Notes under the pieces: model-generated
Database searches by the model: none
Seen by the model: the letters and a program-made list of their open reading frames with translations, nothing else
Told to the model about the DNA's origin: nothing
From: Alphaproteobacteria bacterium
GTDB lineage: Bacteria > Pseudomonadota > Alphaproteobacteria > Bin95
Direction of reading: 5' to 3'
DNA: 64,000 bases
Assembly: GCA_964291285.2 (NCBI GenBank)
Contig: OZ219787.1
Location: forward strand, 1,312,001 to 1,376,000
Made by a program: the position numbers and the translations under genes
Part shown: positions 1-41,899 of the stretch, piece after piece
Position numbering within the stretch: position 1 is the stretch's first letter
How the letters are laid out: each line of letters opens with the position of its first letter

Positions 1-271
1 TCCCGCCCGCGCCGGCCCGGTGCGGAACGACCCCGATTCAGCCGACAGACGAGGTGCGCCCTGCGCCTGCCTCGCGCACGCGCAATCAGGCGCGCGAACC
101 GCGCCGGCGCAATGGCGCGCCCGCGCCCGCCCGCGATTGCGCGCGAATAAGGGTCGCTCCCAAGCCGGGACGGCATGGCCGTCAAACCGAAGCGTAACCA
201 AAGGGGATTATCCGTTTGACTAAATATCAGCCCGTCTCCTAGCCTGTGCTCTTCACAGCGGGAGATCAAGC

Positions 272-1652
272 ATGGCGAGGAAATCTGATAGGGTAGAAGG
301 CAGGCGACGCAGCGGCGACGCAGCGGCGACGCAGCGGCGACGCAGCGGCGACGCAGCGGCGACGCAGCGGCGACGCAGCGGCGACGCAGGAAGCCAACTG
401 GCGCAACCGCACCATCTGGACGCGCGACAATCTCCATGTCCTGAGAGGCATGAACAGCGCCACGGTCGATCTCATCTATCTCGACCCGCCCTTCAACTCC
501 AACCGCACCTATAGCGCACCCATAGGCTCGGAGGCGGCCGGGGCTGCCTTCAAGGACTCATGGACCTTCGACGACGCGGACCGCGTCTATCTGGCACTGC
601 TGCAAGAGCGTGACCCGACGACTTTCGCCATAATCGACGCGGCCCGGCTGGCGCACGGGCGCGGCATGGCGGCCTATCTCGGCATGATGGCGCAACGCCT
701 CGTCGAAATGCGGCGTGTCCTGAAGCCGACCGGCAGCATCTATCTGCATTGTGACCCGTTCGCGTCGCATTATCTCAAGATGCTCATGGACGCGATTTTC
801 GGACGCCTTAATCACCGGAACGAGATTATCTGGTGCTATACTGGCCCCGGCTCACCGCATATGCGCCAGTTCAACCGAAAGCACGATACAATCCACTGGT
901 ATTCAGTCGGCGAGACATGGACCTTCAATGCCGACGCCGTGCGTATTCAGCACCATGGCAAGACCAAGGCGAATTTCAAAGACGGTTTGCGCGGTTCTGG
1001 ATTTATCGAGGGCGAATATGGGCTGACGGACGGCAAAGTCCCTGAAACATGGTGGCCGCAAGAGAAAGGAAATGGACTCGCCATAGCGCCCCGCCAAAAG
1101 GCGCAATATGTCGGCTATCCGACGCAGAAGCCGCTTGCCCTTCTGGACCGCATCATCAAGGCGTCGAGTAACGAGGGCGATGTCGTGCTGGACCCATTTT
1201 GCGGTTGCGCGACGGCCGCCGTGGCGGCGGAGCGGCTACAGCGCCAGTGGATCGGCATCGACATTTCCGCGAAGGCGGCCGAGCTCGTCACGACGCGCCT
1301 GCAAGGCATCCTCGACGAAATCCCGCTCTACAAGACCGGCGATGTTGTCCACAGGACGGACCAGCCGGGCCGCACGGACCTGGGAGACCTTCCCCACTAC
1401 CGGACGCACCTGGACTTGCTCTACGGCCAGCAGGAAGGCTTTTGCGGCGGTTGCGGGGAGCATTTCCGCAAGCGCAATCTGACGGTGGACCATATCGTCC
1501 CGCAAGCGCATGGCGGGACCGACCACCTTGAGAACCTTTGGCTGCTGTGCGGCGCCTGCAATTCGTCGAAGGGAACGCGCTCGCAAGAGCAATTCCTGAA
1601 AGAGCGTATGCAGAAGCGCGCCGCCCTGTTCCCGTGGCTGATAGAGGCGTGA
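272..1652 (+). CDS. Beta-class N6A/N4C DNA methyltransferase with C-terminal HNH endonuclease; frameshifted in 5' tandem repeat (catalytic ORF 450-1652)
   Basis: DPPF motif precedes YPTQKP...DPFCGCAT. C-terminal CxxC...DHIVP...GG...NL...CxxCN. The conserved N-terminus NRTIWTRDNLHVLRGM lies in frame upstream of ATG450 with no start codon. RBS GGGAG and ATG272 are in another frame. Confidence 0.88.
303..389 (+). repeat. 11-bp tandem repeat GGCGACGCAGC x ~8
   Basis: 7 perfect units at 303-379 plus 10/11 of an eighth, counted directly. Confidence 0.97.
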
Positions 1653-2621
1653 CTAGTATGGCCGCGCCCCGCTCGCCAGCCCGTTCTCGGCAATCAGCCG
1701 GGCGTAGGTCAGGCGCTTCCCGACCATGCCGGCCGCCAGTCCCGCCATTTGTGCCAGCGTCCCGGCTTCGCGGATGTTGTGCCGCCCGGCGAACTCCGCG
1801 ATGTAGCGGTGAAGGTGCTTCGGCGAGAACTTGTGATAGACGCCCTTGTGCGCCCGCTTCAACATGGCCCAGAAGCTCTCGATCCCGTTGGTATGCGCCT
1901 GCTGGCGGACATACTCGCCAGCGGAGTGATTGACCGCTTCATGCTGAAACCACACTTGCAGCGCCCGATAGACCGTCGCCTCGTCCGAATAGACCGTCGT
2001 GCCGATGCGGGCGTTGTGAGCGGCGAAGCCTGCCAGCGACGGCGCGTCCGCGTGCTGGACATGGCGGGCGCGAACCTGCTTCGTGCCCCGGTCCTTCACG
2101 CCAACGACAATGTCCTTGCCGACAGCGCCGCGACCCTCAAGGCTCTCCCGCTTCGCCTTGTGCATGTTCTTGCGCAGCCCGCCCAGATAGACCTCGTCCA
2201 CCTCTACCGGCCCGTCCATGGGCGGCTCGTCGTCGCGCTTGAAGGCTTCGCGGATGCGCTGGAGCATGAACCATGCGGTTGCCTGCCGGACGCCTATGTC
2301 CCGGCCCAGCTTCACGCTGGAGACGCCCTTGAGCGAAGTCAGGTGCAGGTAGATCGCCCAAACCCACTTGCGGAACGAGAGCTTGGACCGCTCCATGACG
2401 GTGCCGATGCGGACGCTGAAATGCCGCTTGCAGCCGGGGCAGTAGTAGGGCATCGGCGGGTTGCCGGTGCATTCAATCGTCTCGGTATGGCCGCAGCGCG
2501 GGCAATGGCGACCGTTCGGCCAGACCTTCGCCTCAAACCATTCGCGGGCGCTTTCCTCGGTCGGGAACATCTCTCCCAACTCCATGATGGTCACGCCTTC
2601 GCGGTAGTGCTTGCCAGCCAT
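1653..2621 (-). CDS. IS1595-family (ISXO2-like) DDE transposase
   Basis: Zn ribbon CPRCG...CPGC; VEVDE, YSDE, HTNGIESFW, Y..EF..RHN motifs; GGAGG before ATG2621. Confidence 0.93.
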   Translation of the reverse strand: MAGKHYREGVTIMELGEMFPTEESAREWFEAKVWPNGRHCPRCGHTETIECTGNPPMPYYCPGCKRHFSVRIGTVMERSKLSFRKWVWAIYLHLTSLKGVSSVKLGRDIGVRQATAWFMLQRIREAFKRDDEPPMDGPVEVDEVYLGGLRKNMHKAKRESLEGRGAVGKDIVVGVKDRGTKQVRARHVQHADAPSLAGFAAHNARIGTTVYSDEATVYRALQVWFQHEAVNHSAGEYVRQQAHTNGIESFWAMLKRAHKGVYHKFSPKHLHRYIAEFAGRHNIREAGTLAQMAGLAAGMVGKRLTYARLIAENGLASGARPY

Positions 2622-3047
2622 GACGGCCTCCGTTCCGACTGCTTGAGTCAGAATATGGGGACTCGCCGTCATTTAGTCAAGCGGATAATCCCCTAACCAA
2701 AGGAGCCGCCGCACCCCATGCCCATCATCGACCCCTGGTCGCCGGAGAACATCGAACAGCGCCGCCGGGACAGCCTCGACTGGCTCCAGAGGGCCGGACC
2801 CTTCAATGCGCCCGGAGACGCGGACTTCGCCCCGGACCATGACAATACATGACATTCCATGACATCCACGGTGGAGAGGACGATCCCGCCGCCCCGCGCA
2901 CGCGCGGGCGCGCATTATGCGCAGGCGCGGGACGCTCTTCCGGCAACAGGGGCGTCCGGAACCACGGCCCGACCAAGGAGGCTGCAATGCCTTGCGAACG
3001 ACCGGAGCGGAGACCGGCCTGGAGTGGGCCCCTTGGGTCGGACAGTT

Positions 3048-3842
3048 TCACGCGGCATTTTTGACAGGGTTGCGTTGTTGTTTCTCCTCGAAGCGGTTTG
3101 GGCTCAGATATCCGAGGGCGGAGTGCAGGCGTCTGTGGTTGTAGCTGTCGATGAAGCGTGGCAGTTGCCTTGCGACGTCATCGGCGGTCTCGAAGGCCAT
3201 GGGATAGACGCCTTCGACCTTCAGGGTTTTCATGAAGCTCTCCATCATGGCGTTGTCGTAGGGGTTGGCTCGTCGTCCCATGGAGCCGACCATCCCGTGT
3301 TTGTCGAGCCGGGTCCGGTAGGCATGGGCGGCGTATTGCGAGCCCCTGTCGGAGTGGTGGATGCAGCCGGGCTGAGGGCTTCGGTTCCCGATCGCCTTGT
3401 CGAGCGCCGCGAGCGTCAGGCGCGCGTCGATGCGTTGCCCGAGCGCGTAGCCGACAATGCGGCGCGACCAGGCGTCCATGACCGCCGCCAGATAGACGAA
3501 GCCGTCCAGGATGGCGATGTAGGTCAGGTCGGCGACCCAGAGCCGGTTCGGGCCCTCGACCTCGCAGTCCCGGGACCGGTCCGGGAAGACCGGCCCGTCG
3601 TGGCCGCTGTCCGTGGTGGCGACAAAGCGGCGCTTGCGCGGCGGCTGCAGGGCGTGTTCGCGCATCAGCCGCCTGACCTTCTTGTGGTTGACGGTCCGGC
3701 CCCGGTGGCGAAGTTCCGCCTGCATGCGCCGCCAGCCATAGGCCTCGAACTCGTCCTTGATCTCGTGCATCGCCTCGACCAGGGCGGTGTCGTCGACCGG
3801 GCTCTGCGGCTCGCGGTAACAGGTGGAGCGCGCGATCCCCAT
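3048..3842 (-). CDS. IS3 OrfB, rve/DDE integrase core
   Basis: WVADLTY, HHSDRGSQY, DNAMMESF, YNHRRLHSALGY motifs. Confidence 0.93.
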   Translation of the reverse strand: MGIARSTCYREPQSPVDDTALVEAMHEIKDEFEAYGWRRMQAELRHRGRTVNHKKVRRLMREHALQPPRKRRFVATTDSGHDGPVFPDRSRDCEVEGPNRLWVADLTYIAILDGFVYLAAVMDAWSRRIVGYALGQRIDARLTLAALDKAIGNRSPQPGCIHHSDRGSQYAAHAYRTRLDKHGMVGSMGRRANPYDNAMMESFMKTLKVEGVYPMAFETADDVARQLPRFIDSYNHRRLHSALGYLSPNRFEEKQQRNPVKNAA

Positions 3843-4192
3843 CAGTCGGCATCCTTCGGCAACGGAGAGGCCTCGGGGCCGGCGATCACGGACATGGGCG
3901 CGCGCCTCGACCGCCGTCCTTGCCGCAAAGCCCCCTTTAGGAACTCCAGCTCCGCGGCCTGCCGGCCGACCAGCCGTTCGAGCGTCGCGATCCGGGCCTC
4001 ATACGCCCGGAGCGTGTCAGCCGCCTCGGCCTCCTCATCGAAGGCGCCGGCCTCGTATTTCTCCAGCCACAGCCGGATCAGGGTGCGAGACAGGTCATGA
4101 CGGCGGGCCAGACCGTAAAACGTCTCGCCTGCCAGATACTCCTCAACGACCTGGCGCTTGAAGGCCATGCTGTGCGTGCGGTGCTTCCTCAT
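3842..4192 (-). CDS. IS3 OrfA, HTH
   Basis: HSMAFKRQVV...LARRHDL...W HTH plus coiled coil; TGATG overlap with orfB. Confidence 0.88.
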   Translation of the reverse strand: MRKHRTHSMAFKRQVVEEYLAGETFYGLARRHDLSRTLIRLWLEKYEAGAFDEEAEAADTLRAYEARIATLERLVGRQAAELEFLKGALRQGRRSRRAPMSVIAGPEASPLPKDAD

Positions 4193-4612
4193 CGGCGTCG
4201 ATCCTTCCAATGACCGCGCACCTGTCAATTTCCTACAACAAAACTGTCCGAGACCAGGGGCCCACTCCAGCCCCATGACAAAACATGACATTCCATGACA
4301 TGGCGCGAGGGAGTCGCTGTCGCCCCCATCCGTCGCCCCCAGGCGGAGAAGCCGGGGCCTCAAGCGGCCGGACCTCCGCTGCATGGAGGACCCGGCTCGC
4401 CCTGCGGGCGTCCGGGGCGACGAAAAGGGGGGCGGAGACCGGCCGGGACAGCTTCCAACCGGCGGCTGTCGGTATAGTTCCAAGCGGGTTGCGAGTCTGC
4501 GGGTGCTCTTGCTATGTTGGAGGACTGACGGGTTTGGAGGCTCGTTCAGGCGTCAGGCCGGCGCAGGTTGCCGGTCCAAGGGGATTCAAACAACAATCAT
4601 GGGAGTGCAAAC

Positions 4613-5647
4613 ATGAAGATCGTGCGTCTGGCATGCGGCGTAGCCGCTGCGGCCATGGTGGGAGGCGTCGCCATGTCCGCTTCCGCCGCAGATGAGGTGC
4701 TCTGGAACTTCTCCGCCTGGGGCAAGCCCCGCGCCTTTACCAAGGGCATCGATGCGATGAGCGAGTACCTCGCCGAGAAATCGGGCGGCAACTTCAAGCT
4801 CAAGATCCATTACGGCGAGGCGATCTCGCCTTCGAAAGAGAACATCGACGGCATCAAGATCGGCAGCCACGAAGCTGCGATGATGTGCACCTCCTACCAT
4901 CCCGGCAAGAACCCGGCCGGCACGGTGCTCGACCTGCCGTTCCTGCCCATCTCCGACCTGACGGTGCAGGCGAAGGTGCATGAGGACTTCATCGGGCATC
5001 CGGAGTTCAAGAAGGAGATGAAGCGCTGGAACGCCATCCCGATCTTCTCCGGCATCCTGCCGCAATATGAGGCGATGGGCGTCGGCGACCCGGCCAGGAG
5101 CGCGGCGGACTTCAAGGGCCTGAGGGTGCGCGGCCTCGGCGGCATCGGCCAGTTCTTCGACAAGCTGGGCGCGGTTCCGACCACGGTAACGGCGTCGGAA
5201 AGCTACACGGCGCTCGAACGCGGCACCATCCAGGTGATGACCTTCCCCTACAGCTACGCCTTCGGCGCCTACAGGCACCACGAAGTCGCCAAGTGGTACA
5301 CGGAAGGCATGGCGCTGGGCTCGGTCTTCTGCCCGCAGGTCATGAGCGTCACCGCCTACAACGCGCTGCCGGACGAATACCGGGCGTTGTTCAACGACGA
5401 CATGAAGTGGAACTCCTACAACACGCTGATCTCCGCCTACAAAGAGGCCGACAAGAAGTGGATCCCGATCTACGAAAAGGCCATGGAGCGGGTAGAGTTC
5501 AGCAAGGAGCAACGTGACGAGTTCGTGAAGATCGGGGCGCAGCCCGTTTGGGACGAGTGGGTGGCAAACAACAAGGAAAAGCTTCCCGCTCAAGAGCTTC
5601 TCGACTTCGTTCTCGAGCGTGCCGCACACCACAACAAGGAAGCGTAG
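4613..5647 (+). CDS. dctP: TRAP transporter substrate-binding protein (DctP family)
   Basis: Signal peptide; DFKGLRVR and ESYTALERG motifs; followed by dctQM. Confidence 0.9.
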   Translation: MKIVRLACGVAAAAMVGGVAMSASAADEVLWNFSAWGKPRAFTKGIDAMSEYLAEKSGGNFKLKIHYGEAISPSKENIDGIKIGSHEAAMMCTSYHPGKNPAGTVLDLPFLPISDLTVQAKVHEDFIGHPEFKKEMKRWNAIPIFSGILPQYEAMGVGDPARSAADFKGLRVRGLGGIGQFFDKLGAVPTTVTASESYTALERGTIQVMTFPYSYAFGAYRHHEVAKWYTEGMALGSVFCPQVMSVTAYNALPDEYRALFNDDMKWNSYNTLISAYKEADKKWIPIYEKAMERVEFSKEQRDEFVKIGAQPVWDEWVANNKEKLPAQELLDFVLERAAHHNKEA

Positions 5648-5674
5648 AGGGCCGTAGTCCTCGCAAGTCTGGGT

Positions 5675-5700
5675 GGGGCCGTTCCGTCGCGAACGGCCCC
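5675..5700 (+). terminator. Intercistronic hairpin after dctP (terminator or mRNA stabiliser)
   Basis: 10-bp stem GGGGCCGTTC/GAACGGCCCC followed by a T-rich tract. Confidence 0.6.
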
Positions 5701-5737
5701 ATTCTATTGTTTGCCACAAGGGGAGGAAGCGAAGTCT

Positions 5738-6394
5738 ATGGCTCAAGCCCAGACACGGAACGGGCGCCAGAACAGCACTTTGTCGGCTATAGATCGCGCC
5801 TTCAGTCGCGTGGAGGATGCCGTCACGCTTTTTGCGGCGGCAGTTATCTTCGTATTGATGCTGTTTGTCGTCTGCGAAGTCATCGGAAGATACGTCTTCA
5901 ACAGGCCGATTCCGGGAGCGATCGACTGGATTGAAGTCTATATGGCGATCTTCGCTTTCCTTCCTGCCGCATATGCGCAAAGGCTGGGCGTGCATGTCCG
6001 CATGGAACTCGTCGTCGCAAAGATGCGCGGCAGATTGTTGTGGGCCGTCGAATGTTTCGCCGTCTGCATCGGCGTCGTCTATTGCCTCATCATCATCGAC
6101 AAGAGCTGGGAGCACTTCCTGAGGTCCGTCATAGAAGGCGACAGCACGATCGACGTGCAGCTCCAGACCTGGCCCGGAAAGCTGGTCGTCCCCATTGCGC
6201 TCGTGCTGCTTTGCATACGGCTGATCATCCAGGTGTGGGGCTACGGACGGCTGGCTCTCGATCCCGACAAGGCTCCCCAGGCGGTTCCGGTGATACTGGA
6301 CGCCGCTGAGCATGCGAGAGCCGAGATCGAAGAGGTCATGGGAAGAGAAACCGACGATTCGACGGATCCGCCTGACGGCGGCTCGAAGGCATAG
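5738..6394 (+). CDS. dctQ: TRAP small permease
   Basis: Four hydrophobic segments; RYVFNRPIPG and HVRMELV motifs. Confidence 0.9.
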   Translation: MAQAQTRNGRQNSTLSAIDRAFSRVEDAVTLFAAAVIFVLMLFVVCEVIGRYVFNRPIPGAIDWIEVYMAIFAFLPAAYAQRLGVHVRMELVVAKMRGRLLWAVECFAVCIGVVYCLIIIDKSWEHFLRSVIEGDSTIDVQLQTWPGKLVVPIALVLLCIRLIIQVWGYGRLALDPDKAPQAVPVILDAAEHARAEIEEVMGRETDDSTDPPDGGSKA

Positions 6395-6405
6395 GGGGCG
6401 CAATC

Positions 6406-7722
6406 ATGGATCCGTTCAACGCAGGTCTTGTATCGGTCGCGGTCATCATCGGGATGGTCGTGCTCGGCGTGCGCGTCGCCTACGCATCCGGAATTGCAGG
6501 CGTGGTCGGGTTGATCATGCTGCGGGGTTACGACCCCGGCGCCGGCCTCGCCGGTCTGCTCGCCCATTCACAGGTCAGCCATGTCACCCTCTCGGTGCTG
6601 CCGATGTTCATCCTCATCGGCTTCCTGGCATTCTATGCCGGACTGACGCGAAGCGCGTTCTATGCGGCCAGATGCTGGCTCGGCACCCTGCCCGGCGGGC
6701 TCGCCGTTGCAACCGTGTTTGCAACTGCCGGTTTCGCTGCGGTGTCCGGCGCCTCGACGGCGACAGCCGCCGTGTTCAGCCGCGTCGCGATCCCGGAGAT
6801 GCTGAAATACGGCTACGAACGCAGTCTGGCAGCGGGCGTCGTCGCCGCCGGCGGCACGCTTGCATCGCTCATCCCGCCGAGCGCCATCCTGGTGATCTAC
6901 GCCATCATCGTCGAGGAATCGGTGGGCGCCCTGCTGCTTGCGGGCTTCATACCGGGCGCGCTTTCCGCGGTGATTTACGCAGTGCTGATCGTCTTCCGCT
7001 GCAAGCTGAACCCCAAGCTGGGCGCGCCCGTCTCGGCGGTTCCGCTGGCCGAAAAGTTCCGGTCCCTGATTGGCGCCTCGGGCATCTTCTTCGTGATCTT
7101 CATCATCCTGGGCGGCATCTACACGGGCGTGATGACCCCGACCGAGGTCGGCGGCGTCGCCGCATTCGTGATCTTCCTGATTGCGCTTGCGAAGCGCAAT
7201 ATGAGCCTCGGAAACCTGCGCGAATCGCTCATGGAGACCGCGAAGCTCACGGTTTTCATCTTCACGATCATCTGGTCGATCCTGATCTATGTGCGGTTCC
7301 TCGGCTTCTCGGGCCTGCCGGAGGCGTTCGCCACATTCATCGTCAGTATCGACGTGCCGCCCATCGTCGTGATGATCCTGATCCTGCTCGCCTATGTCGT
7401 GCTCGGCATGTTCATGGACGGCATCGGGATGCTGTTGCTGACCCTGCCGGTCGTCTATCCGGCGGTCACGGCGCTCGGCTACGACCCGGTCTGGTTCGGC
7501 ATCATCATCGTCAAGATGGTGGAGGTCTGCCTGGTCACGCCGCCCATCGGCCTCAATTGCTTCGTGGTCAACGGCGTCAGACCGGACATTCCGCTCGAGG
7601 AAGTCTTCAAGGGCATCTGGCCCTTCTTCGTGGCGGACATCATCACGGTCGCCGTGCTCGTCGCCTTCCCCGGCATCGTGCTCTGGCTGCCGCGGTTGAT
7701 GATCCAGAACATCACCGCATAG
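6406..7722 (+). CDS. dctM: TRAP large permease
   Basis: GTLASLIPPS, TPTE, TPPIGLN motifs; many TM segments. Confidence 0.93.
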   Translation: MDPFNAGLVSVAVIIGMVVLGVRVAYASGIAGVVGLIMLRGYDPGAGLAGLLAHSQVSHVTLSVLPMFILIGFLAFYAGLTRSAFYAARCWLGTLPGGLAVATVFATAGFAAVSGASTATAAVFSRVAIPEMLKYGYERSLAAGVVAAGGTLASLIPPSAILVIYAIIVEESVGALLLAGFIPGALSAVIYAVLIVFRCKLNPKLGAPVSAVPLAEKFRSLIGASGIFFVIFIILGGIYTGVMTPTEVGGVAAFVIFLIALAKRNMSLGNLRESLMETAKLTVFIFTIIWSILIYVRFLGFSGLPEAFATFIVSIDVPPIVVMILILLAYVVLGMFMDGIGMLLLTLPVVYPAVTALGYDPVWFGIIIVKMVEVCLVTPPIGLNCFVVNGVRPDIPLEEVFKGIWPFFVADIITVAVLVAFPGIVLWLPRLMIQNITA

Positions 7723-7746
7723 AGCGGGGCCGGCGCGGTTTTCCGC

Positions 7747-9303
7747 TCAGGAAAGCCGCGCCGCCAGCCCCATCGGCTCGTCGCGGAAGAGCGCGGCCGG
7801 CATTTCGCGCAGATCGTCGGCAATGCGGGGCCGGAAGGCCATCCGCGCCAGCACGTCGCGTTCGAGATCGACGCCCGGCGCAATTTCGACGACCACCGGC
7901 CCGGCCTCCTCGATGCGGAAGACGCAACGCTCGGTCACCGCCATGATCGTCTGCCCGCGCGCGAGGCCGGCGCGGGCGTTGAAGCTCACCTGCTCCACCG
8001 CTTCCACGAACTTGACCGGGGCGCCGTCGCGCCGGATGTCGAGGCGGCCGCCGGCGGCCCGGATGTCGGTCTCGCCGGCCGTGAACTGGCCGCAGAAAAC
8101 GACCCGCTTCGCGCCCTGGGTTACATTGAAGAAGCCGCCTATGCCGGGAATGCGCGCCTTCAGCTTCGACACATTGACATTGCCGGCGGCGTCCAGCTCC
8201 GCCATGCCAACGAAGGTTATGTCCAGACCGCCACCGTCATAGAAGTCGAACTGGTAGGTGTTGTCGATGACCGAACTCGGATTGATCGCGGCGCCGAAGG
8301 AAAGCCCGTAGGCCGGATAACCGCCCGTGGCACCGGATTCGACCGTGAGCGTGAAGGCGTCACCGCAGCCCTCCTCGCCCGCCACCGTCGCCACATATTC
8401 GGGCGCGCCCACGCCGAGATTGACCACGTCGTCCCGGCGGAGCTCCATCGCCGCGCGCCGGCCGATCACCTTCTTGACCGACAACGGCTGCGGCGGGCGG
8501 GCGCTCAGGTCCGCGCGCACCTCGCCCGAGAACACCGGGTCGTAGGCTGTCGCGAATGTCTGCGGGTGGTTCTCCGGCCGCGCGACGACGACCCGGTCCA
8601 CGAGATGGCCCGGAATCACCACCCGCCTCGGATCGAGCGAGCCGCGCTCCGCAATGCGCTCGACCTGCGCCAGCACGATGCCGCCGGAGTTCCGCACCGC
8701 CTGCGCGAAGCTCGGCCCCTGGAAGGTGCCGATCTCGCGCTCCATGGTGATGTTGCCGTCCGGGTCCGCCGTCGTGCCGCGCAGCAGGCCGGCGTCGAGC
8801 CGCATGGAGGGGTAGAACAGCCAATCCCGCCCGCTGAGCCGCACGCGCTCCACATAGTCTTCGACGGTGCGGGCGTTCACCTTGCCGCCGCCATGTTCGG
8901 GATCGACGAAGGTGCCGAGGCCCACATGGGTCACGAGGCCTGGCCGCCCGGCAGCGATCTCCCGGTAGAGCTGGACGATCGCGCCGAGCGGCAGCAGGTA
9001 ACCTTCGATCTCATTGTCGATCAGCCGGCGCTGGAGCATCCGGTTGAGATTGAGATAGGAGGTGACGAGCCGGCGGATCATCCCGTCGTGACGCAGACGG
9101 TCGAGGCCGCGCCCGCGTGTGTCGCCGGAGCCGGTGGAAGCGATGACGGTCAGCCCGCCGGGCTCGCCCGTTTCCAGGAACCGCGCCTCCAGCGCCAGCA
9201 GCAGCTCTTCCGGGCAGACCGAGCCGACGAAGCCGTCCACGCCCAACACCGCGCCGGAAGGCACCAGCGCCGCCGCCGCCGCAGCCGTCACGATCTTGCT
9301 CAT
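7747..9303 (-). CDS. Family I acyl-CoA:acetate/propionate CoA-transferase (YdiF/Pct-like)
   Basis: GLGTFVDP, NLGVGAPE, TVESG (catalytic Glu), DFYDGGGLD, GNVNVSK. Confidence 0.88.
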   Translation of the reverse strand: MSKIVTAAAAAALVPSGAVLGVDGFVGSVCPEELLLALEARFLETGEPGGLTVIASTGSGDTRGRGLDRLRHDGMIRRLVTSYLNLNRMLQRRLIDNEIEGYLLPLGAIVQLYREIAAGRPGLVTHVGLGTFVDPEHGGGKVNARTVEDYVERVRLSGRDWLFYPSMRLDAGLLRGTTADPDGNITMEREIGTFQGPSFAQAVRNSGGIVLAQVERIAERGSLDPRRVVIPGHLVDRVVVARPENHPQTFATAYDPVFSGEVRADLSARPPQPLSVKKVIGRRAAMELRRDDVVNLGVGAPEYVATVAGEEGCGDAFTLTVESGATGGYPAYGLSFGAAINPSSVIDNTYQFDFYDGGGLDITFVGMAELDAAGNVNVSKLKARIPGIGGFFNVTQGAKRVVFCGQFTAGETDIRAAGGRLDIRRDGAPVKFVEAVEQVSFNARAGLARGQTIMAVTERCVFRIEEAGPVVVEIAPGVDLERDVLARMAFRPRIADDLREMPAALFRDEPMGLAARLS

Positions 9304-23903: not shown

Positions 23904-24069
23904 ACCCGGAGCGGCGGGAGCCGGAAGGAACGGGACGCATGACTATCGCGGAGAAGTTTCCCTGACGCGCCGCCGCAGTGCGGCGATGGGATGGATCGTT
24001 GTGAAGCGCCGCCCCGGCGGCCAACAGGCGAGGTGCGCGCCGAATCCGGAAAACCGGTTTTGGCAATCC

Positions 24070-24245
24070 GATCAGCTTGCCGGCGAATCGCCGCCCCGGG
24101 AGGCCCCGGCGACCCCGCCCGGAGCCGGGCGGATTTTCGATCGGGTTGCCGAGGGGCCGCCGCCCCGGGAGGTCCTGGCGGTCCCGTCCGCCTCCGGGTC
24201 GGCATTTCGATCAGGTTGCCGGCGGGCCGCCGTCCTGGGAGGCGC
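24070..24245 (+). repeat. Degenerate ~70-bp tandem repeat (x2.5)
   Basis: GATC.G.TTGCCG...CGCCG.CC.GGGAGG starts at 24070, 24139 and 24209. Confidence 0.7.
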
Positions 24246-24636
24246 CGGTTGTCCGGGCCCGCTTCCGGTTCGGTATCTTCCATTTGCGGTGCCTCCAGCG
24301 CCTGAAGCCGTGGCGCCTGAGGAAGCGGTAGATGGCGCCGTAGCTGAACACCAGGCCGCGCGCATCGAGGGCCGCGCGCAGCCCTTCGACGGAAAGGCCC
24401 GGATTTTCCGCCAGCAGGCTGAGGACGGTGTCGCGTTCGGCCTCGATTCGCGCGGAGCGGCGGTCGCCGCCCGCCGGCTTCGGCCGCGTGTCGCCCTGTT
24501 GGCGTTCGAGCGCCCGCCATCGCGTGATGGTGTCCTTGCCCACATGGAACCGCGCCGCGGCTTCCCGGCGGGTCGCCCCCGCCGCCACCGCTTCGAGAAC
24601 CCGCTTGCGCAGGTCGGGGGAATAGGCTTTCGGCAT
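24211..24636 (-). CDS. IS630-type HTH-only protein (OrfA-like, no DDE domain)
   Basis: MPKAYSPDLRKRVL...AAARF.V...RW...KPAGGDRRS...RFLRRHG; GGAGG RBS. Confidence 0.78.
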   Translation of the reverse strand: MPKAYSPDLRKRVLEAVAAGATRREAAARFHVGKDTITRWRALERQQGDTRPKPAGGDRRSARIEAERDTVLSLLAENPGLSVEGLRAALDARGLVFSYGAIYRFLRRHGFRRWRHRKWKIPNRKRARTTGASQDGGPPAT

Positions 24637-26460: not shown

Positions 26461-27906
26461 TCACACGCAGGAGGCAGCGGTGTCAAAGCCGTTCTCGTCC
26501 GCGTATATCGCGGTCTCGAAATCGGCCCAAGCCTTGGTGCGCGTCTTGCCTGCCCGCTCTCTCAGGGCCATCGCGGCGGCACGAGATCCGGAGAGGGCCG
26601 TCACCATGTCGGCCTGTTCATCCTTTGGCGGGAGAGGAAATTTCAGGTCCATCAGAGCCGGCTTCGAGATATTCTTCATGGTCGGCGAGGTTCCGGTCAC
26701 ATTCGCTTCTATCTGGCGGCGAACATCGGAAATGCGCAGGATTTCGGCCAGGAAGGCTAGGCAGATGGGCGTGGGTTTGCGCGGAACAACGCGGAATATC
26801 TTGTCGCAAAGTATAAGTTTCGGACGTGTCTCGCCAACCAGGGCCGTTGCGCCGACAAGCCGGGTGATATTGGCGCGGCTTATCAATACCTCCCCCGACG
26901 CGACTTCGAGGCGCCGGCGCGGTTCGAGGTGCTCAGGCAGCGCCTTGTTTTCGTCGGGGTCGAATATGCCGAAGGAAACCGCGCCGAGTTTCAGGACTCC
27001 CCATTTACCCGGTTCGGCAGGCCGGTTGTGGCATTTCGGGCTCCAGCCGTTTTCCAGGTCGGCGATTACGTCGCCGAGCCGCACGAACGGGTAGTGCGAG
27101 GGAGCGGTTGTGTCACCTTCGACGCTCCGGCGGAGAGCAGCCTCATGGCTCCAGCGGTCGAGGTCCTTGAAGGTGGCGATGAAGGCTGGTCGATCCGGCA
27201 GAGGCTCGGGCGGGGCGAAACCGAGTGCCGCTTCGAACGCCGCCATTGCCCGCCGCTCGGTTTCGTCCGCTTCCCGCTCCAGTTTCGTCGCCCGATCCAG
27301 CGCGGCGCAGTGGGCAGCCACGATGGCGCGCTGGCGATCTAAAGACGGCAGCGGGATAGTGCGGCTTTCGAAGAAGGCGGGCCGAATGCGCCGCTTTGTC
27401 GTGTTGCCGGAAGCCGACCCGCTGAGTTGCGCCAGAAACTCCGGCGTGCGCAGCGCAAGGATCAGATAGCCCGGATCGACCTGTTCGGGATCGGGTGTAT
27501 AGACAGGGTATTCGGGGCTCACCGCTACATGGTCGACTCCGTCGCCGATGATGCAGAAGGAACCCTGCCCCACCCTGATCTTCGAGATAATCAGATCGCC
27601 CGGCAGCGCCTCGAAGAGCGGTCCCTTGTAGCCCCGTTTTTCCGCATCTCCCCGAAGGAACAGTTCACCGCCGAAAGTCACTTTGGCGATGACGTTCAGG
27701 CGTTGAAGAGGGCGGGTTTCCTTGTCGATGGCGGAGACACGGCGCATCAGGATATCGCTGAGCGCGGCGGTCTCGAAAGCATATCGCCGCCCTTGGGTCC
27801 CCGGACCCTCGATCCATGTTCCGAGCGCCCTCCACCGCCGGATCAGGCAGCGGAGGGCAGGGGAAAATCCGGCGTGGCCTCCGGGTCTGCGCCGGCGTCC
27901 TTCCAT
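26461..27906 (-). CDS. hsdS: Restriction-modification specificity (S) subunit; start uncertain
   Basis: Two TRD-helix repeats (GDLIISK...IPLPSLDRQRAIV; GEVLISRAN...FPLPPKDEQ). Confidence 0.85.
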   Translation of the reverse strand: MEGRRRRPGGHAGFSPALRCLIRRWRALGTWIEGPGTQGRRYAFETAALSDILMRRVSAIDKETRPLQRLNVIAKVTFGGELFLRGDAEKRGYKGPLFEALPGDLIISKIRVGQGSFCIIGDGVDHVAVSPEYPVYTPDPEQVDPGYLILALRTPEFLAQLSGSASGNTTKRRIRPAFFESRTIPLPSLDRQRAIVAAHCAALDRATKLEREADETERRAMAAFEAALGFAPPEPLPDRPAFIATFKDLDRWSHEAALRRSVEGDTTAPSHYPFVRLGDVIADLENGWSPKCHNRPAEPGKWGVLKLGAVSFGIFDPDENKALPEHLEPRRRLEVASGEVLISRANITRLVGATALVGETRPKLILCDKIFRVVPRKPTPICLAFLAEILRISDVRRQIEANVTGTSPTMKNISKPALMDLKFPLPPKDEQADMVTALSGSRAAAMALRERAGKTRTKAWADFETAIYADENGFDTAASCV

Positions 27907-30329
27907 GACTCGAAGGCGCGCCAGGCGTCGAGGACCGCCGGTAGGTCGTTCGGCACGTCCTCGCCGGTCTCCCCGGTCGAGGTGATGCCGACGGCGGCGG
28001 GCGCAGCCACGAAGACCGGATAGTCGAAGGTCTCGCGCACCGTTTCCCAAAGGGCGGCGTCATGCGCAGCGTCGATGCGCTTCAGGCCGGCCCGCAAGCC
28101 GTCCAGCGCGGCTCCCGACCTTGCGGCGGGGGCTCCGGCGAAAGCGGCGTTGAAGTCCCGCTTCAACCGGGCGGCGTGTCCTGCAGCTTCGCGGTCTTCC
28201 GGCTTGCCGGTCCATCGTGGCCGGCGCAATCTGGCCGGGCCGATGCCGCTCGGATAGGCCGGCGGGTCGCCGGAGGTCCAGTCGGGCCCGGTTCGGTCGA
28301 CGCCGAGGCCTGCCAGCTCATCCAGAAGCGCCTGCACCGCCGGGTCTCCACCAGCGACGGCCTCCGGGCCTGCCTGCCGACAAAGCTCGTCCCGCTGTTC
28401 GTTGAATGCGCCGTCATGGCGCGCATGGGCTGTTTCCCAGGCGGCTTCCCATTCCGCCTCGTCGGCTGCCGTGAAGCGCCGAAGGAAGACCATCGACGCT
28501 TTCACGGTGGCATCCGCCGAGCGGAACGTTTCCTCCAGCAGGCTGACGATGGCGAGAATCTTCGCTTTGCCTTCGCACCAGCGGCGCAGCCAGTCGAGCG
28601 ACGGGTTGTTGAGATTGCCGTCGGGCAGCACGATTCCCATGCGCCCGCCGGGCCTGAGCAGGGAAAGGCAGCGCTCCACGAAGACGATCTCGGTGGCGCG
28701 GTTCGCCTTGCCGCGGCCGATCTCGAACAGGTCGAGAATGTTCGTGCCCGCCGCGCCGAGCATGCGCTCGTGGCTCCGCTCCCACGCTTCGCCGTAGCGT
28801 TTGCGGCAGAGGTCGCGATAGACAGGATCGTCGGGAACCCGCGTTTCGTTGGTATCGCCGACCTTCTGGTCGCTGCCCACATTCGCGCCGAAGGGCGGGT
28901 TGGTGACGACGATATCGAACCGATCGGGGAAGATGCCGTTAATGTCGACAAGGCCGTCATGGTAGTGGATGCCGCCGTGGCCATCACCGTGCATGATCAT
29001 GTTCATCTTGGCGGTGCGCGCGGCGCGCGCTTCGGCGTCGCAGCCGAAAATGCAGCGCCATGCCAGCCTACCGACGCGGGTATCGACCGGCATGTTGTCG
29101 TCGTCCGACGGCAGAAGATCCCGGTTAAGCGCCGCGAACGCCCCGTCGATCCGGGCTTCCTCTTCCTCGGGGTCGAGATCTGCCGCCTCGATATCGGCCC
29201 GCACCCGATCCTTCTCCGCCTGGACATCGGCGGCGATCCGGCCGCGAACATGCTCGAAGGCGCGGATCAGGAAGCCGCCCGACCCGGCCGCGGGGTCGCA
29301 GATAATTTCGTCCTCCTGCGGGTCGAGCAGGTTGACCATGAAATCGACGACCGGGCGCGGCGTGAAATACTGGCCGAGTTCGCCCCGGAATGTCGTGCCG
29401 AGGAAACGCTCGAAGGCGAGGCCCTTGATGTCGTCACCGGTCTTCGACAGGTCGAAGCGTTCAAGCTCCTTCACAATGCGGCGGAAGGTTCCTTCGGAAA
29501 TCTCGAGGCGGTCGGTCTCGGCGAAAAGGTCGTCCGCCCGGTAGTGGTCCTTCGTCTGCTCGAACAGGCCGTCATGGACGAGCGGATCGGTCGGCAACCG
29601 CGTCGAAGCGCGGCGGTCGAGATAATCCACCGTGAATGTGCCGTGCAGGCCCGAACGCTCCACATACATCTTCACGAACAGTATCTTCGACATCGTGTCG
29701 AACGCGCGCCCCGGCTCCATCTTGTGCACTTCCCAAAGGATCGAGTGGCACTTGAACAAAAGGGCCTGAAACTCCTTGCGGTCGAAGGCGCGCAGCGCAT
29801 TCTTGATCTCTTCGATTCGCTTGGCGTCGCCCCAGTCTGCCGCTCTGGGAATTTTGTTGATCTGCACGAATTCGCCCGGCGCTCCCGGAACCAACTTGAA
29901 GACGGCTGTGAAGCGGGCATTGTGCGCAACGAAGAATTCGCAGCCGGCCGCGCGGGCGTAACTCTGGCCCTGGTAATAGTCCCGAACGCTGATCTCGACA
30001 TTCTCGGCCTTGCACTCGACCACGAGGACGGGGGTCCTGTTCGCAGCCTTGGCCTGCTGCGTCTCCCAGACCACGATATCGGCGCGGGGGCTGCGATGCC
30101 CGTGCATCGTGCGCCGTTCCTGGTCCATTTGGCCGAGCGTGTAGCCCAGACTCTCGCAAAGATGGCGAACGAACTGCTGGCGAACGGTTTCTTCCGGTTT
30201 GTCCGATACGTCGCGCCATTCGCCCCGCAGCGGAATCCATAGCCACTTGCCCTGTTCGTGCAGCTTGCCCGGCTCGGCGGGAAACGGTGTTCCCGGCGCT
30301 TCTTTCGGCTTTCCTGAGGAGGCCGCCAT
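27843..30329 (-). CDS. Fused endonuclease-N6-adenine methyltransferase (Type IIB/IIG-like R-M subunit)
   Basis: N-terminal PEETVRQ...RADIVV...VVECK nuclease domain; GQYFTPR, DPAAGSGGFL, TNPPFG. Confidence 0.9.
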   Translation of the reverse strand: MAASSGKPKEAPGTPFPAEPGKLHEQGKWLWIPLRGEWRDVSDKPEETVRQQFVRHLCESLGYTLGQMDQERRTMHGHRSPRADIVVWETQQAKAANRTPVLVVECKAENVEISVRDYYQGQSYARAAGCEFFVAHNARFTAVFKLVPGAPGEFVQINKIPRAADWGDAKRIEEIKNALRAFDRKEFQALLFKCHSILWEVHKMEPGRAFDTMSKILFVKMYVERSGLHGTFTVDYLDRRASTRLPTDPLVHDGLFEQTKDHYRADDLFAETDRLEISEGTFRRIVKELERFDLSKTGDDIKGLAFERFLGTTFRGELGQYFTPRPVVDFMVNLLDPQEDEIICDPAAGSGGFLIRAFEHVRGRIAADVQAEKDRVRADIEAADLDPEEEEARIDGAFAALNRDLLPSDDDNMPVDTRVGRLAWRCIFGCDAEARAARTAKMNMIMHGDGHGGIHYHDGLVDINGIFPDRFDIVVTNPPFGANVGSDQKVGDTNETRVPDDPVYRDLCRKRYGEAWERSHERMLGAAGTNILDLFEIGRGKANRATEIVFVERCLSLLRPGGRMGIVLPDGNLNNPSLDWLRRWCEGKAKILAIVSLLEETFRSADATVKASMVFLRRFTAADEAEWEAAWETAHARHDGAFNEQRDELCRQAGPEAVAGGDPAVQALLDELAGLGVDRTGPDWTSGDPPAYPSGIGPARLRRPRWTGKPEDREAAGHAARLKRDFNAAFAGAPAARSGAALDGLRAGLKRIDAAHDAALWETVRETFDYPVFVAAPAAVGITSTGETGEDVPNDLPAVLDAWRAFESWKDAGADPEATPDFPLPSAA

Positions 30330-30445
30330 TCCCGTTCCCTATCGCAAATCGTCGCTGAACCCGAGGCCGGCGAGCATGACAAGCCCGGCCGGCGCTGTCG
30401 AGTTGGCATCCGTCGCTGCGCCGTCCGGCTGCCGTCCCGATACGG

Positions 30446-30868
30446 TCAGTCCTTCCAGGGGTCGATCACGCGGAGGCCGGCCGCCTCGAACGGGGTTGTG
30501 TCGCGGGTGGCGACCGCCATGCCGTTGGCGGCCGCCGTCGCTGCGATATATCCGTCCGACGCCGCCACGGCGAGGCCCTTGCCGCGCGCCGCCGCCATCA
30601 GGCCGGCATAGGCCTGCGAGGCCGCGAGATCGAACGGGAGGATGCGGCCGGCGAACAGCGGCAGGATCCGGCGCTCGATCTCCTCATCCAGCAGGGTCCG
30701 GCGCCGCCCGGCGGGCAGCGACATGACGCCGAAACGCAGTTCGGCGACCGCGATCGCCGGGAGATACAGGGTTTCGAGGGGCTGGGCGTCGATCCAGGCG
30801 GCCACGCGGGCCTCCGGGCTGCGCCGCAGCGGCTCCGAGACGACGTTCGTGTCCAGTAAATAACTCAT
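30446..30868 (-). CDS. vapC: PIN-domain toxin (VapC/FitB-like)
   Basis: LLDTNVVSE, AELRFG, DGYIAATA, VATRD, IDPW. Confidence 0.9.
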   Translation of the reverse strand: MSYLLDTNVVSEPLRRSPEARVAAWIDAQPLETLYLPAIAVAELRFGVMSLPAGRRRTLLDEEIERRILPLFAGRILPFDLAASQAYAGLMAAARGKGLAVAASDGYIAATAAANGMAVATRDTTPFEAAGLRVIDPWKD

Positions 30869-31233
30869 CGGGACGCACCCACCTCGGCATTCTTGCCAAG
30901 CCCTTCCATTCGAGGCATATGTGACATAAGCGGTTGCGTGGACACGATTATTTTAGTCCGCTAGATTGCGGCCATGGAACCCACAGTCGCCAAACGAGAC
31001 AAGAGAGCGAGTGCTTACGATCCGTTTCGCACGCTCGCATTCCCGCTGCGCTTACGAGAAAATCGACCCGTTCCACCACAGGACGCCATCCGTCGAATCC
31101 GGTTCGGCGAGGCCGTGACGGAGGGAGCGATGGCGCAGACCGAATTCGGACCGGACCTGCCGGAACGCGGAGCCGGCATCGTCGTTTTCGTCGTCGCCAT
31201 GACCGAACGCCCTCGTCTCCGGAGCAGGACGCC

Positions 31234-32415
31234 ATGACGCAACGCCAGTACCGCACCCTCTCCAAGCGTATCGTCGACAGTCTCCCCGTCGATGGCAGGG
31301 ACACCGTCTACTGGGACCGCGAGCTGCCCGGTTTCGGCCTGCGCGTCTACGCGAGCGGCAAAAAGGTCTTCGTCGTCCAGACGCGAGCCTTCGGCCGTTC
31401 CAGGCGCGTGACCCTCGGCGAGCACGGCAACCCGTTCTCCGCCGACCGGGCCCGCAAGGAGGCCGCTGAGGTCATCGTCCGCATCAAGACGGGGCAGCCG
31501 CCGATACCGAAGGACCCGGCCAACGATCCCACCGTCGCCGACCTCGCGGACCGCTACTTCAGAGAACATGTCGAGATGCACTGCAAGCCGGCCACCGTCT
31601 CCCACTACCGGATCATGCTGCGCAAGCACATCGTGCCCGCCCTCGGCGGGCGTCTCGTCGCGGAGGTCGAGCACAAGGACATCCTGCGCTTCCACGACGC
31701 GCTGCATCACAGCCCCAGTGTCGCCAACCGGGCGGCCGACATTCTGGTCAAGATGTTCAATCTGGCCGACGAGTGGGGCTGGTGTCCCTCGGGGCGCAAC
31801 CCGGCCCGGAGCGTGCCCCGTTTCAGGGTCGAGAAGCACGAGCGCTTCCTCACCCGCGAGGAACTCTCCCGGCTCGGCGAGGCGCTCAGGGCCGCGCCCG
31901 CCGGGCGCCGGGCGTCCCCCCATGCGGCGGCCGCCATCTACCTTCTCGTGCTGACCGGATGCCGGCGCAACGAGATCCTCGGCCTGCGGTGGGACGACCT
32001 CAACTTCGACACTGGCGAGATGCGGCTGCGCGACTCCAAGACCGGCGCGCGGATGACGCCGATGCCGGCAAGGGTGGCCGCAGTGTTCGCCGGCCTTCCC
32101 CGCACGCCCGGCAATCCCTGGGTCTTCCCCGGCAGGAAGAAGGGCGCGCACCTGGTCAACCTCAACGACTCCTGGGAGCGCATCCGCAAGGACGCCGGTC
32201 TCGACGGCGTCCGCCTGCACGACTTGCGCCACACCTTCGCTTCCAGGGCGCTCGCGCTGGGCGAGGGCCTGGCGATGATCGGCGACCTGCTCGGCCACCG
32301 CAAGGTGAGCACCACCGCGCGTTACGCCCACCTCGCGCGGGACTCGGTGCGGGTGTCCTCGGCCCGGGTCGCCGCCGACATCGGCGCCAGGATCATGGCG
32401 CCGGACGGCCGCTAG
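31234..32415 (+). CDS. Tyrosine recombinase/integrase with N-terminal arm-binding domain
   Basis: WDRELPGFGLRV; TGCRRNE, HDLRH, LLGH, RYAH catalytic residues. Confidence 0.93.
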   Translation: MTQRQYRTLSKRIVDSLPVDGRDTVYWDRELPGFGLRVYASGKKVFVVQTRAFGRSRRVTLGEHGNPFSADRARKEAAEVIVRIKTGQPPIPKDPANDPTVADLADRYFREHVEMHCKPATVSHYRIMLRKHIVPALGGRLVAEVEHKDILRFHDALHHSPSVANRAADILVKMFNLADEWGWCPSGRNPARSVPRFRVEKHERFLTREELSRLGEALRAAPAGRRASPHAAAAIYLLVLTGCRRNEILGLRWDDLNFDTGEMRLRDSKTGARMTPMPARVAAVFAGLPRTPGNPWVFPGRKKGAHLVNLNDSWERIRKDAGLDGVRLHDLRHTFASRALALGEGLAMIGDLLGHRKVSTTARYAHLARDSVRVSSARVAADIGARIMAPDGR

Positions 32416-32452
32416 AGCGCCCGCGTCAAGGCGTACTCCGGAAGGACACTCC

Positions 32453-37370: not shown

Positions 37371-38165
37371 CTATGGCGACGGGACCGGGTTCGCCTTTCC
37401 AGTGCTTTGCCCGGCTTTCGGTCCGCGCCGGCGGCGGCGTTCGGCGCTGCGCTGCTTCTGACGTTCCTCGGCTTCCTTGCGGCGCCAGGAGTCGCCGTCG
37501 ATGGCGACGATCTCGGCGTTGTGGACGAGCCGGTCGACGAGGGCGACCAGGCAGGCGGCGTTTGGGAAGGCCTCGCTCCACTCGGCGAAGGGGCGGTTCG
37601 TGGTGATTATGGTTGAGTTCTGCTGGCTGCGGCTTGAGACGATGTTGAACAGCAGGTCGGCGTGGCGGTTGGAGTAGGAGAGATATCCGACTTCGTCGAT
37701 GACCAGCAGGTGCTGTCGGGCGTAGAAGCGCAGCCTGCGCTGGAGCAGGGTGTCGGAGTCGATGGCGGCGAGTTCGCCGAGCAGGCTGGCGGCGGTTGCG
37801 AAGCGCACGATGTGGCCTTCGAGGACGGCGCGGTGGGCGATATTGGCGGCGATGGTGGACTTTCCGACGCCGTTGGGTCCGACCAGTACGAGGTTTGCGG
37901 CCTCCTTGAGGAAGTCGAGGGTCATGAGGTCCTCGACGGCCATGCGGTCGCAGCGCCTTGGCCAGTCCCAGTCGAAGTCTGCGAGCGGCTTGAACTGTCC
38001 GAGGCGGGCGTCGGCGAGGCGGCGTTTGAGGCTTCGGGCGCGCTTCTCATCTTCTTCCCACGCGATCAGGGAGGCGAGCCAGTCGCGCTCCGCGACTTCG
38101 CCCCAATGGGCGAGGAGGCCGTGCAGGCCCAGCGCGCGGGCGCGGTTCATGAGGGTGTCGGTCAT
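37371..38165 (-). CDS. istB: IS21 helper ATPase IstB
   Basis: FDWDWP, GPNGVGKS, LLVIDEVGY, ITTN, DRLVH. Confidence 0.94.
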   Translation of the reverse strand: MTDTLMNRARALGLHGLLAHWGEVAERDWLASLIAWEEDEKRARSLKRRLADARLGQFKPLADFDWDWPRRCDRMAVEDLMTLDFLKEAANLVLVGPNGVGKSTIAANIAHRAVLEGHIVRFATAASLLGELAAIDSDTLLQRRLRFYARQHLLVIDEVGYLSYSNRHADLLFNIVSSRSQQNSTIITTNRPFAEWSEAFPNAACLVALVDRLVHNAEIVAIDGDSWRRKEAEERQKQRSAERRRRRGPKAGQSTGKANPVPSP

Positions 38166-39667: not shown

Positions 39668-39668
39668 C

Positions 39669-41852: not shown

Positions 41853-41899
41853 AACGACCCTCCAATCGCAGAATCGCTATTGAGTCAGAACTCGATAAC

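Follow-up and report, generated by a model that had tools for sequence, protein, structure and literature searches.

The subject of this work is an insertion sequence (IS) that carries a methyltransferase-HNH gene and that lies near the left end of a 64-kb stretch of alphaproteobacterial DNA (contig OZ219787.1, positions 1,312,001 to 1,376,000; the whole stretch is hereafter called the window, and positions are counted within it). The element occupies 203-2693, i.e. 2,491 bp, and is almost certainly a transporter IS (tIS) of the IS1595 family, with one transposase gene and one passenger gene, the latter encoding a fused methyltransferase and nuclease and containing an 11-nt tandem repeat near its 5' end. 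The features met along the element are as follows.

195-202, no strand: left copy of the target duplication, TAACCAAA, identical at 8 of 8 positions to 2694-2701 and abutting the left inverted repeat
203-225, plus strand: left terminal inverted repeat, on the cargo side, starting with GGGGATTA and containing the hexamer TTGACT
272-274, plus strand: inferred true start codon (ATG) of the methyltransferase-HNH gene, leader MARKS...
303-389, plus strand: tandem repeat GGCGACGCAGC, 11 nt x 7.9, in the 5' coding region; putative phase-variation tract
297-1652, plus strand: open frame of the methyltransferase-HNH enzyme, following a TAG at 294-296, with no ATG, GTG or TTG before 450
450-1652, plus strand: methyltransferase-HNH open reading frame (ORF), PF01555 N6_N4_Mtase (E 4e-46) and PF01844 HNH (E 5e-14)
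465-1286, plus strand: beta-class DNA methyltransferase domain, PF01555, residues 6-279
1443-1580, plus strand: HNH nuclease domain with two CxxC pairs, PF01844, residues 332-377; also PF14279
1653-2621, minus strand: IS1595-family transposase, 322 amino acids from the ATG at 2621, which is preceded by GGAGG; longest ORF 1653-2672
2652-2680, minus strand: promoter-like site for the transposase, TTGACT, 17 nt, CATATT, 9 of 12 positions, a consensus match only
2671-2693, minus strand: right terminal inverted repeat, on the transposase side, partner of 203-225
2694-2701, no strand: right copy of the target duplication, TAACCAAA, followed by GGAG

The 23-nt inverted repeats are alike at 22 of 23 positions, the sole mismatch being a T facing a C at position 13. 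With up to three mismatches permitted, the pattern was met at two sites in the window, the two ends of the element, for none expected (100 shuffles). Pairing continues over arms of 38 nt, with 82% complementarity (left arm 202-239), and termini starting with GGGGATTA or GGGAATTA were also found in 10 related elements. The transposase matched PF12762 DDE_Tnp_IS1595 (E 1e-38, profile positions 2-153 of 153, about 1776-2219), the zinc ribbon PF12760 (E 5e-8, residues 37-83 of the 339-amino-acid ORF, about 2424-2564) and the NCBIfam model NF033547 transpos_IS1595 (183 bits for a cut-off of 75, positions 1-215 of 215); its homologues, 322-333 amino acids long at 99-100% coverage, agree with a start at ATG 2621. 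The traits that define the IS1595 family, i.e. a DDE domain, an N-terminal zinc ribbon, terminal repeats and an 8-bp duplication, were thus all found, the zinc ribbon being described in all groups of the family but IS1016 in the passages devoted to it in PMC8101967. Transposase and cargo genes are convergent and their stop codons, 1650-1652 and 1653-1655, abut. Since the cargo lies within both the repeats and the duplication, it moved together with the IS. An earlier note on this DNA had described the inverted repeats and the perfect 8-bp duplication around both genes, the abutting stops at 1652/1653 and a cargo mobile with its IS, all of which was confirmed. It had also called the element intact, which is correct for the transposition machinery, but the cargo as assembled lacks an open full-length frame (see below). 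The G+C content of the element is 62.7%, as against 67.0% for the window.

The longest ORF of the cargo starts at 450. The domains are indeed present there, but the real start is probably the ATG at 272, the sole suitable one, in another frame and across the 11-nt repeat. The segment NWRNRTIWTRDNLHVLRG, conserved in the family, is encoded at about 393-449, upstream of Met450 and in the methyltransferase frame. The homologue P0006 starts with MARKSS and continues in frame, without interruption, into the conserved N-terminal segment. An AlphaFold model was made for P0006, a natural intact homologue 75% identical to the cargo; its residues 21-50, with a predicted local distance difference test score (pLDDT) of 84-89, form one strand and one helix, and the segment upstream of Met450 is accordingly modelled as part of the folded core. 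In the window, the frame opened by ATG 272 reads MARKSDRVEG, enters the repeat and ends at 514; three-frame translation showed that the tract places this ATG out of frame with the enzyme core. The frame is restored by adding one unit (+11) or by removing two (-22), and no stop codon interrupts the tract at 303-389 in any of its three sense frames. This tract, with 100% matches and a Tandem Repeats Finder score of 174, is the strongest tandem repeat of the window. Taken together, the conserved segment upstream of 450 and the MARKSS start of P0006 indicate that the gene is OFF as assembled, and the apparent ORF start at 450 is explained by this frameshift. The reading frame hence contains a perfect non-triplet repeat whose copy number sets the frame.

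In the encoded enzyme, one polypeptide unites a nuclease motif with motifs I and IV of a methyltransferase. Motif IV (DPPF) lies near the N-terminus of the methyltransferase, followed by a variable central target-recognition region and then by motif I (DPFCGCATA) near the C-terminus. Two alignments, of 26 and of 28 homologues, show no exception to the residues of motifs I and IV. In the nuclease part, all 26 sequences of the first alignment agree at D347, H348, N362, N371, C332, C335, C367 and C370, and the second alignment likewise shows no variation in the HNH catalytic and zinc residues. The closest structures of the core, by sequence and by fold, were CcrM, M.BceJIV, M.RsrI and M.MboIIA, followed by Type III Mod subunits, the Foldseek matches including EcoP15I and Mbo45V Mod; no entry of the PDB, searched in both ways, spanned both methyltransferase and HNH. 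Sequence and fold place the core in the beta class; a DPPF motif IV in these families points to N6-adenine, and the enzyme is probably an N6-adenine methyltransferase. In PADLOC, the cargo was recognised by generic MTase_II, MTase_III (E 8e-46) and orphan-methyltransferase models only, and the transposase had no match. The family is large, with at least 8,000 candidates at E 0.001, and HNH Pfam domains were present in 117 of the 120 best listed. A HMMER search with the HNH part and linker alone gave 656 cluster representatives at E <=1e-10, of many lengths and with a mostly C-terminal match, and the ESM Atlas holds automatically named N6_N4_Mtase + HNH clusters of 56-87 members. No related element was found in a DNA search of plasmids with the whole element (6 short matches, 4-7% coverage). 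At a query coverage of at least 80%, the cargo protein was matched by none of 15 plasmid and none of 54 phage records, in collections made up mostly of cultured organisms; the protein matches in these records end near residue 285-292, so they comprise the methyltransferase part only, the fused form being absent there.

The recurrence of the cassette was evaluated in species-representative genomes by one profile scan, based on a 26-homologue alignment, which yielded 591 relatives, from which the 76 best-scoring loci were kept (designated L below). A full-length IS1595 transposase, detected by tblastn with that of the window, adjoins the methyltransferase-nuclease gene in 11 of these 76 loci, which span several phyla; in addition, L029 has a 42-amino-acid transposase fragment at the edge of its contig, and L018 has a fragment far downstream. 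In nine of the 11 loci the two genes are co-directional with the transposase upstream, and in the other two (L025 and L073) they converge as in the window. Inverted repeats surround both genes in all 11, being perfect over 46 nt in L028. A perfect 8-bp duplication was found in eight (L002, L003, L004, L028, L035, L057, L068, L073), a 7/8 duplication in L011 and L025, and none in L022. The earlier note had allowed that homologues might never be found between IS1595 repeats elsewhere; these 11 loci, ten of them with 7 or 8 of 8 duplicated positions, speak clearly against that. A TTGAC(T/A) hexamer at a similar distance from the tip was seen in many terminal repeats (window, L002, L022, L025, L073), and in the window the -35 hexamer TTGACT of the sole promoter-like site found lies inside the right inverted repeat and faces the transposase. 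Terminal repeats may thus carry inward promoters for both genes.

The association extends to a second type of IS. An IS1-like transposase (PF03400) adjoins the gene in four more loci, namely L007 (at 7329), L026, L053 (at 5500) and L074, the last as a decayed unit at 4817-6923. In L026, perfect 22-nt repeats surround a 4.8-kb unit (3365-8154), and the IS1-like inverted repeat starts with GGTAGTGTCTCAG. An ORF of 75-80 amino acids, belonging to no Pfam family, was observed upstream of the methyltransferase gene in three of these four loci. The remaining 61 of the 76 loci have no neighbouring transposase. Clustering of the ORFs located within 3.5 kb in 77 loci revealed no recurrent neighbour other than transposases, which indicates that the enzyme has no separate nuclease or helicase partner.

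A protein tree was built from 54 methyltransferase-HNH proteins, after dropping the 18 HNH-less loci and five broken or short ones (L014, L026, L042, L063, L068); its topology is rough, as it includes columns of the recombining target region. IS-linked genes are scattered on this tree, with 8 changes, a value equally low in 65 of 500 shuffles, and a single ancient capture by an IS was rejected on account of this scatter. Over 45 pairs from 10 elements, the identity between transposases does not correlate with that between cargos (Spearman -0.17, P = 0.27), as illustrated by L022 and L073, which share 77% identity in the conserved parts of the cargo and 41% in the transposase. Scatter and uncorrelated identities together argue that the cargo was exchanged among IS backbones more than once. 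Moreover, the tree groups genes of different phyla together, which indicates horizontal transfer.

Two loci offer a particularly close comparison. L003 (Ca. Poriferihabitaceae, Arenicellales) and L035 (Halioglobus), both Gammaproteobacteria, harbor one and the same element, at different sites and with different duplications; stretches of 1,393 and 536 nt align with 98.5% and 97.8% identity. The two copies fail to align over about 300 nt of the central methyltransferase region (L003:6345-6657 and L035:6345-6618) and are otherwise alike. To judge from this alignment, the target-recognition region has been swapped in nature. Near its right end, the element of L003 has a further insertion of 1.16 kb. 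As a further observation, a second, different IS1595 transposase is present at L028:11633-13158, and behind it another methyltransferase gene is represented by its 5' portion (209 nt aligned at 79% nucleotide identity), so that two cassettes lie within this 13-kb locus. In L025 (8909-9773), the tIS is inserted in a gene with a Methylase_S domain (E 6e-12, Type I specificity subunit); one restriction-modification (RM) cassette thereby disrupts the specificity gene of another system. Several locus titles name lineages that we take to be sponge symbionts.

Target-region exchange was also apparent in the database homologues P0009, P0010, P0019 and P0020, whose N- and C-terminal parts are 85-93% identical while their middles are unalignable; conserved ends around unrelated middles form the pattern of target-recognition swapping. 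The nuclease varies as well. HNH is found in 58 of the 76 loci, and the other 18 have a PD-(D/E)XK-type or T5orf172/GIY-YIG domain or are truncated. The PD-(D/E)XK-type tail occurs in seven whole genes and in the broken L076. Mrr_cat was detected in five of the six such proteins scanned (L038, L057, L059, L065, L075); the tail of the sixth, L056, gave no Mrr_cat match and aligns by eye, and L066, outside the six scanned, has a like tail by alignment. T5orf172/GIY-YIG was detected in four of four tested loci. The passenger of the L057 tIS is the Mrr-type form. With three unrelated nuclease folds on one core and no partner gene, a one-protein RM enzyme is the best explanation.

Repeats at the 5' end of the gene were sought in the 76 loci by one fixed rule, over 460 nt around this end. 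Ten tracts were found in nine loci (33.9 kb of 5' regions) versus 27 in 876 kb elsewhere, for an expected value of 1.04, i.e. an approximately tenfold enrichment (Poisson P = 1.7e-7). An A9 tract in the A+T-rich L058 carries no meaning, leaving eight convincing loci, which are listed here.

Out of frame: L002, (GCGACCG) x 20.4; L021, G12; L026, C9; L069, G9; and, with a GTG as the presumed start codon, L057, C21
In frame: L053, (GCCAGCCC) x 7.1, with a GTG as the presumed start codon; and L001, at 82% identity the closest relative, C9 and C11, with an ATG start
Ahead of the gene: L056, C15, some 140 nt before the start codon

Among the in-gene repeats of the window and seven relatives, six of eight are out of frame and two of eight in frame. 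The frameshift of L068 falls exactly at an internal G10, and database homologues display periodic-peptide leaders (P0041, and P0015 by eye) as well as proline and lysine runs. Different repeats at one position of a gene family are a classical sign of selection for phase variation, known from mod genes (PMC8125046, PMC10123105). Phase variation of the cargo through its 5' repeat appears likely on these grounds, switching being predicted from tract and frame. The units of 7, 8 and 11 nt are robust in this respect, as they are free of the doubt that attaches to homopolymers.

Considering all these results, we favour, with a probability of about 0.6, the reading of the element as a tIS with a one-protein RM passenger gated by the 11-nt repeat. 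In this scheme, the DDE transposase with its zinc ribbon would recognise the GGGGATTA-type ends and insert the whole 2.5-kb unit, generating the 8-bp duplication; the element appears to be intact and single-copy. Its lone passenger would act as a stand-alone polypeptide that modifies the DNA of its host and cleaves incoming DNA lacking the mark, with a specificity set by a central, swappable target-recognition region. The hypermutable 11-nt repeat, located between the start codon and the catalytic core, would gate synthesis, eight units (as assembled) corresponding to OFF and nine or six units to ON, and slipped-strand mispairing would switch both activities together in a fraction of the cells. 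As regards the role itself, we lean slightly toward restriction; the methylation and cleavage activities and the part in defence are predictions.

Several points weigh against this scheme. Turning the enzyme ON while the genome is still unmethylated should poison the cell itself, failing some safeguard. The repeat is a minority feature, since in 87 of the 120 best homologues the conserved segment follows a short leader devoid of any repeat. The homopolymer states, which account for the tracts of five of the eight relatives, could be assembly errors of metagenome-assembled genomes, and the fractions given for the 76 loci describe top scorers rather than a random sample. Nonsense or frameshift lesions affect some relatives (L014, L026, L041, L044, L068), and the frameshift could simply mark a dying gene. 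Finally, the HNH part of the P0006 model is of low confidence (pLDDT 50-60).

Other readings were weighed against the same evidence. The one that survives best, while still being unlikely, regards the gene as a phasevarion-type switch, the role of which would be a reversible genome-wide methylation that alters expression, the nuclease being secondary or inactive. Its layout is indeed like that of Type III mod genes (beta class, conserved ends, variable centre, 5' coding repeat), as these are presented in the relevant parts of PMC8125046 and PMC10123105. The HNH catalytic residues are however invariant in all aligned homologues, and the fusion of one core to three unrelated nuclease folds speaks for selection on the nuclease. 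An epigenetic role and restriction are compatible, and both may possibly coexist.

Somewhat less probable is an addiction module, in which the methyltransferase-HNH protein would kill cells that lose the IS and so stabilise or spread the element. Some Type II RM systems act as addiction modules, according to the portion of PMC2853133 concerned with them, and the cargo recurs inside ISs of two families. In contrast, the window and five of the seven relatives with an in-gene repeat have it out of frame, and copies with nonsense mutations or frameshifts persist, so that cells tolerate the loss of the protein. Both activities, moreover, reside on one polypeptide and would decay together, so the nuclease cannot outlast the protection, and 61 of 76 loci have no transposase beside the gene. 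Post-segregational killing, as put forward in the earlier note, therefore fits poorly with such frequent out-of-frame and broken copies of a fused enzyme; within the minimal mobile unit proposed there, a one-protein RM system remains plausible, whereas addiction is poorly supported.

Homopolymer lengths in metagenome-assembled genomes are prone to error, and the tract could, with a low probability, result from accidental repeat expansion or mis-assembly in a decaying pseudogene, devoid of any switching function. The cargo is indeed out of frame as assembled and several relatives are plainly broken. Yet the tract is 100% perfect, whereas old unselected repeats usually gather mismatches; the 1.2-kb frame downstream is intact, with every motif present; all three sense frames of the tract are free of stops; and differing repeat units occupy the same position in eight of 76 relatives, with the enrichment given above. 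Least probable is that the HNH, guided by methyltransferase recognition, nicks or cuts targets for transposition or for homing into unmethylated alleles, a nuclease service to transposition that would suit the recurrent association with transposases of two related IS families but is at odds with the 61 loci lacking a nearby transposase, the occurrence of the cargo in both orientations, the absence of co-divergence between transposase and cargo, and the fact that IS1595 elements without cargo are the norm in the account of the family in PMC8101967.

The favoured reading, a phase-variable one-protein RM enzyme carried by a tIS, was then compared with known systems. In canonical Type IIG enzymes, of about 900-1,200 amino acids, the PD-(D/E)XK nuclease is N-terminal and the methyltransferase belongs to the gamma class (N6_Mtase/Eco57I type). 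They share with the present enzyme the presence of restriction and modification in one polypeptide and, in some cases, a repeat tract able to switch the enzyme, and differ from it in that the latter has 400-450 amino acids, a beta-class PF01555 domain and a C-terminal HNH (Mrr_cat or GIY-YIG in relatives). Cj0031, which also shows these shared traits, is presented as a phase-variable Type IIG enzyme in the passage of PMC4889913 concerned. The Type III mod genes likewise combine a beta-class N6_N4 methyltransferase with conserved ends, an exchangeable centre and a non-triplet 5' coding repeat. Here, by contrast, no Res helicase-nuclease partner exists, the nuclease is fused and the gene rides in an IS; units of 7, 8 and 11 nt occur besides homopolymers, and the gene is found in uncultured environmental bacteria instead of host-adapted pathogens.

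On the side of mobility, tISs are already in print (Siguier et al., 2009, as cited in PMC11891212, PMC8101967 and PMC2853133), and the word undescribed used in the earlier note is too strong as far as this idea is concerned. The passengers named in the pertinent section of PMC11891212 are a regulator (ISNha5, IS1595), methyltransferases (IS220, IS1380 family) and resistance genes. A tIS of the IS1595 family shares with our element a single DDE transposase with zinc ribbon, terminal repeats, an 8-bp duplication and an internal passenger, but among the passengers named in that section none is a methyltransferase-nuclease fusion or phase-variable. Furuta, Abe and Kobayashi (2010) described transposon-like RM units with imperfect inverted repeats and an 8-bp duplication; in the parts of their paper dealing with these units, the transposase responsible for movement is mostly undetermined, units with annotated mobile-element genes having been set aside beforehand, and a transposase motif is mentioned in the third gene of the N. 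gonorrhoeae unit (PMC2853133). For IS-flanked RM or solitary M genes, they cite the 2009 paper on IS1595 (PMC2853133). Compact RM genes, imperfect inverted repeats and the 8-bp duplication are thus common to these units and to our element, which differs by an internal transposase of a defined family and by a cargo made of a single fused gene. Our literature search, with ISfinder, REBASE, the 2009 paper and supplements outside its scope, returned no account of a methyltransferase-HNH fusion carried by IS1595 elements or subject to phase variation, nor of the nuclease swapping or the repeats of this fusion. The element combines known principles in a new way, and a prior listing in ISfinder or REBASE is possible. 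Tentatively, and with less assurance than for the element itself, it may belong to a widespread unnamed class, with a compact beta-class core, an exchangeable target region, interchangeable C-terminal nucleases (HNH, Mrr-type PD-(D/E)XK and GIY-YIG) and independently evolved 5' repeats as stochastic switches, borne across phyla by IS1595 and IS1-like elements.

The surroundings in the window contain other mobile and RM-related genes. An IS3-family element lies 320 nt from the tIS and is flanked by two direct copies of a segment of about 200 bp, which contains CCATGACA-type repeats with a 10-bp period. A canonical-looking Type IIG gene adjoins a PIN-domain gene and two tandem tyrosine-integrase genes, and this group may be the phase switch named in the earlier note. 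An IS-rich region follows further downstream. These features are listed below.

2827-3023 and 4273-4448: direct copies flanking the IS3-family element
3016-4273, minus strand: IS3-family element with HTH_Tnp_1 and rve ORFs and 33-nt inverted repeats, 88%
24062-24248: tandem array of a 69-nt unit (2.7 copies, 74% matches), located 5' in a minus-strand ORF with acyl-CoA dehydrogenase domains
27846-30329, minus strand: Type IIG gene, 828 amino acids, HSDR_N_2, N6_Mtase and Eco57I domains
27846-33652: the Type IIG gene with the adjoining PIN-domain and integrase genes
37374-44386: mobile-element cluster with an IS21-like pair (IstB and Mu-transposase C-terminal domain), a DDE_3 transposase (40796-41821) and a Transposase_29 gene (42056-44386)

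If active, the element would be among the smallest self-mobile RM units known to us, with one transposase and one fused enzyme in 2.5 kb, and it would include a built-in stochastic switch. Should the proposed scheme hold true, ISs can carry defence or epigenetic functions between phyla, and repeat-driven phase variation of methylation, which has been studied almost only in host-adapted pathogens, would extend to uncultured environmental bacteria. A compact methyltransferase core that accepts three nuclease folds would be of use in enzyme discovery, and the near-identical element of L003 and L035, with its swapped target segment in two gammaproteobacterial families, constitutes a natural experiment on specificity change. 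Uncultured marine bacteria would then possess mobile, phase-variable immunity or epigenetic cassettes of only 2.5 kb.

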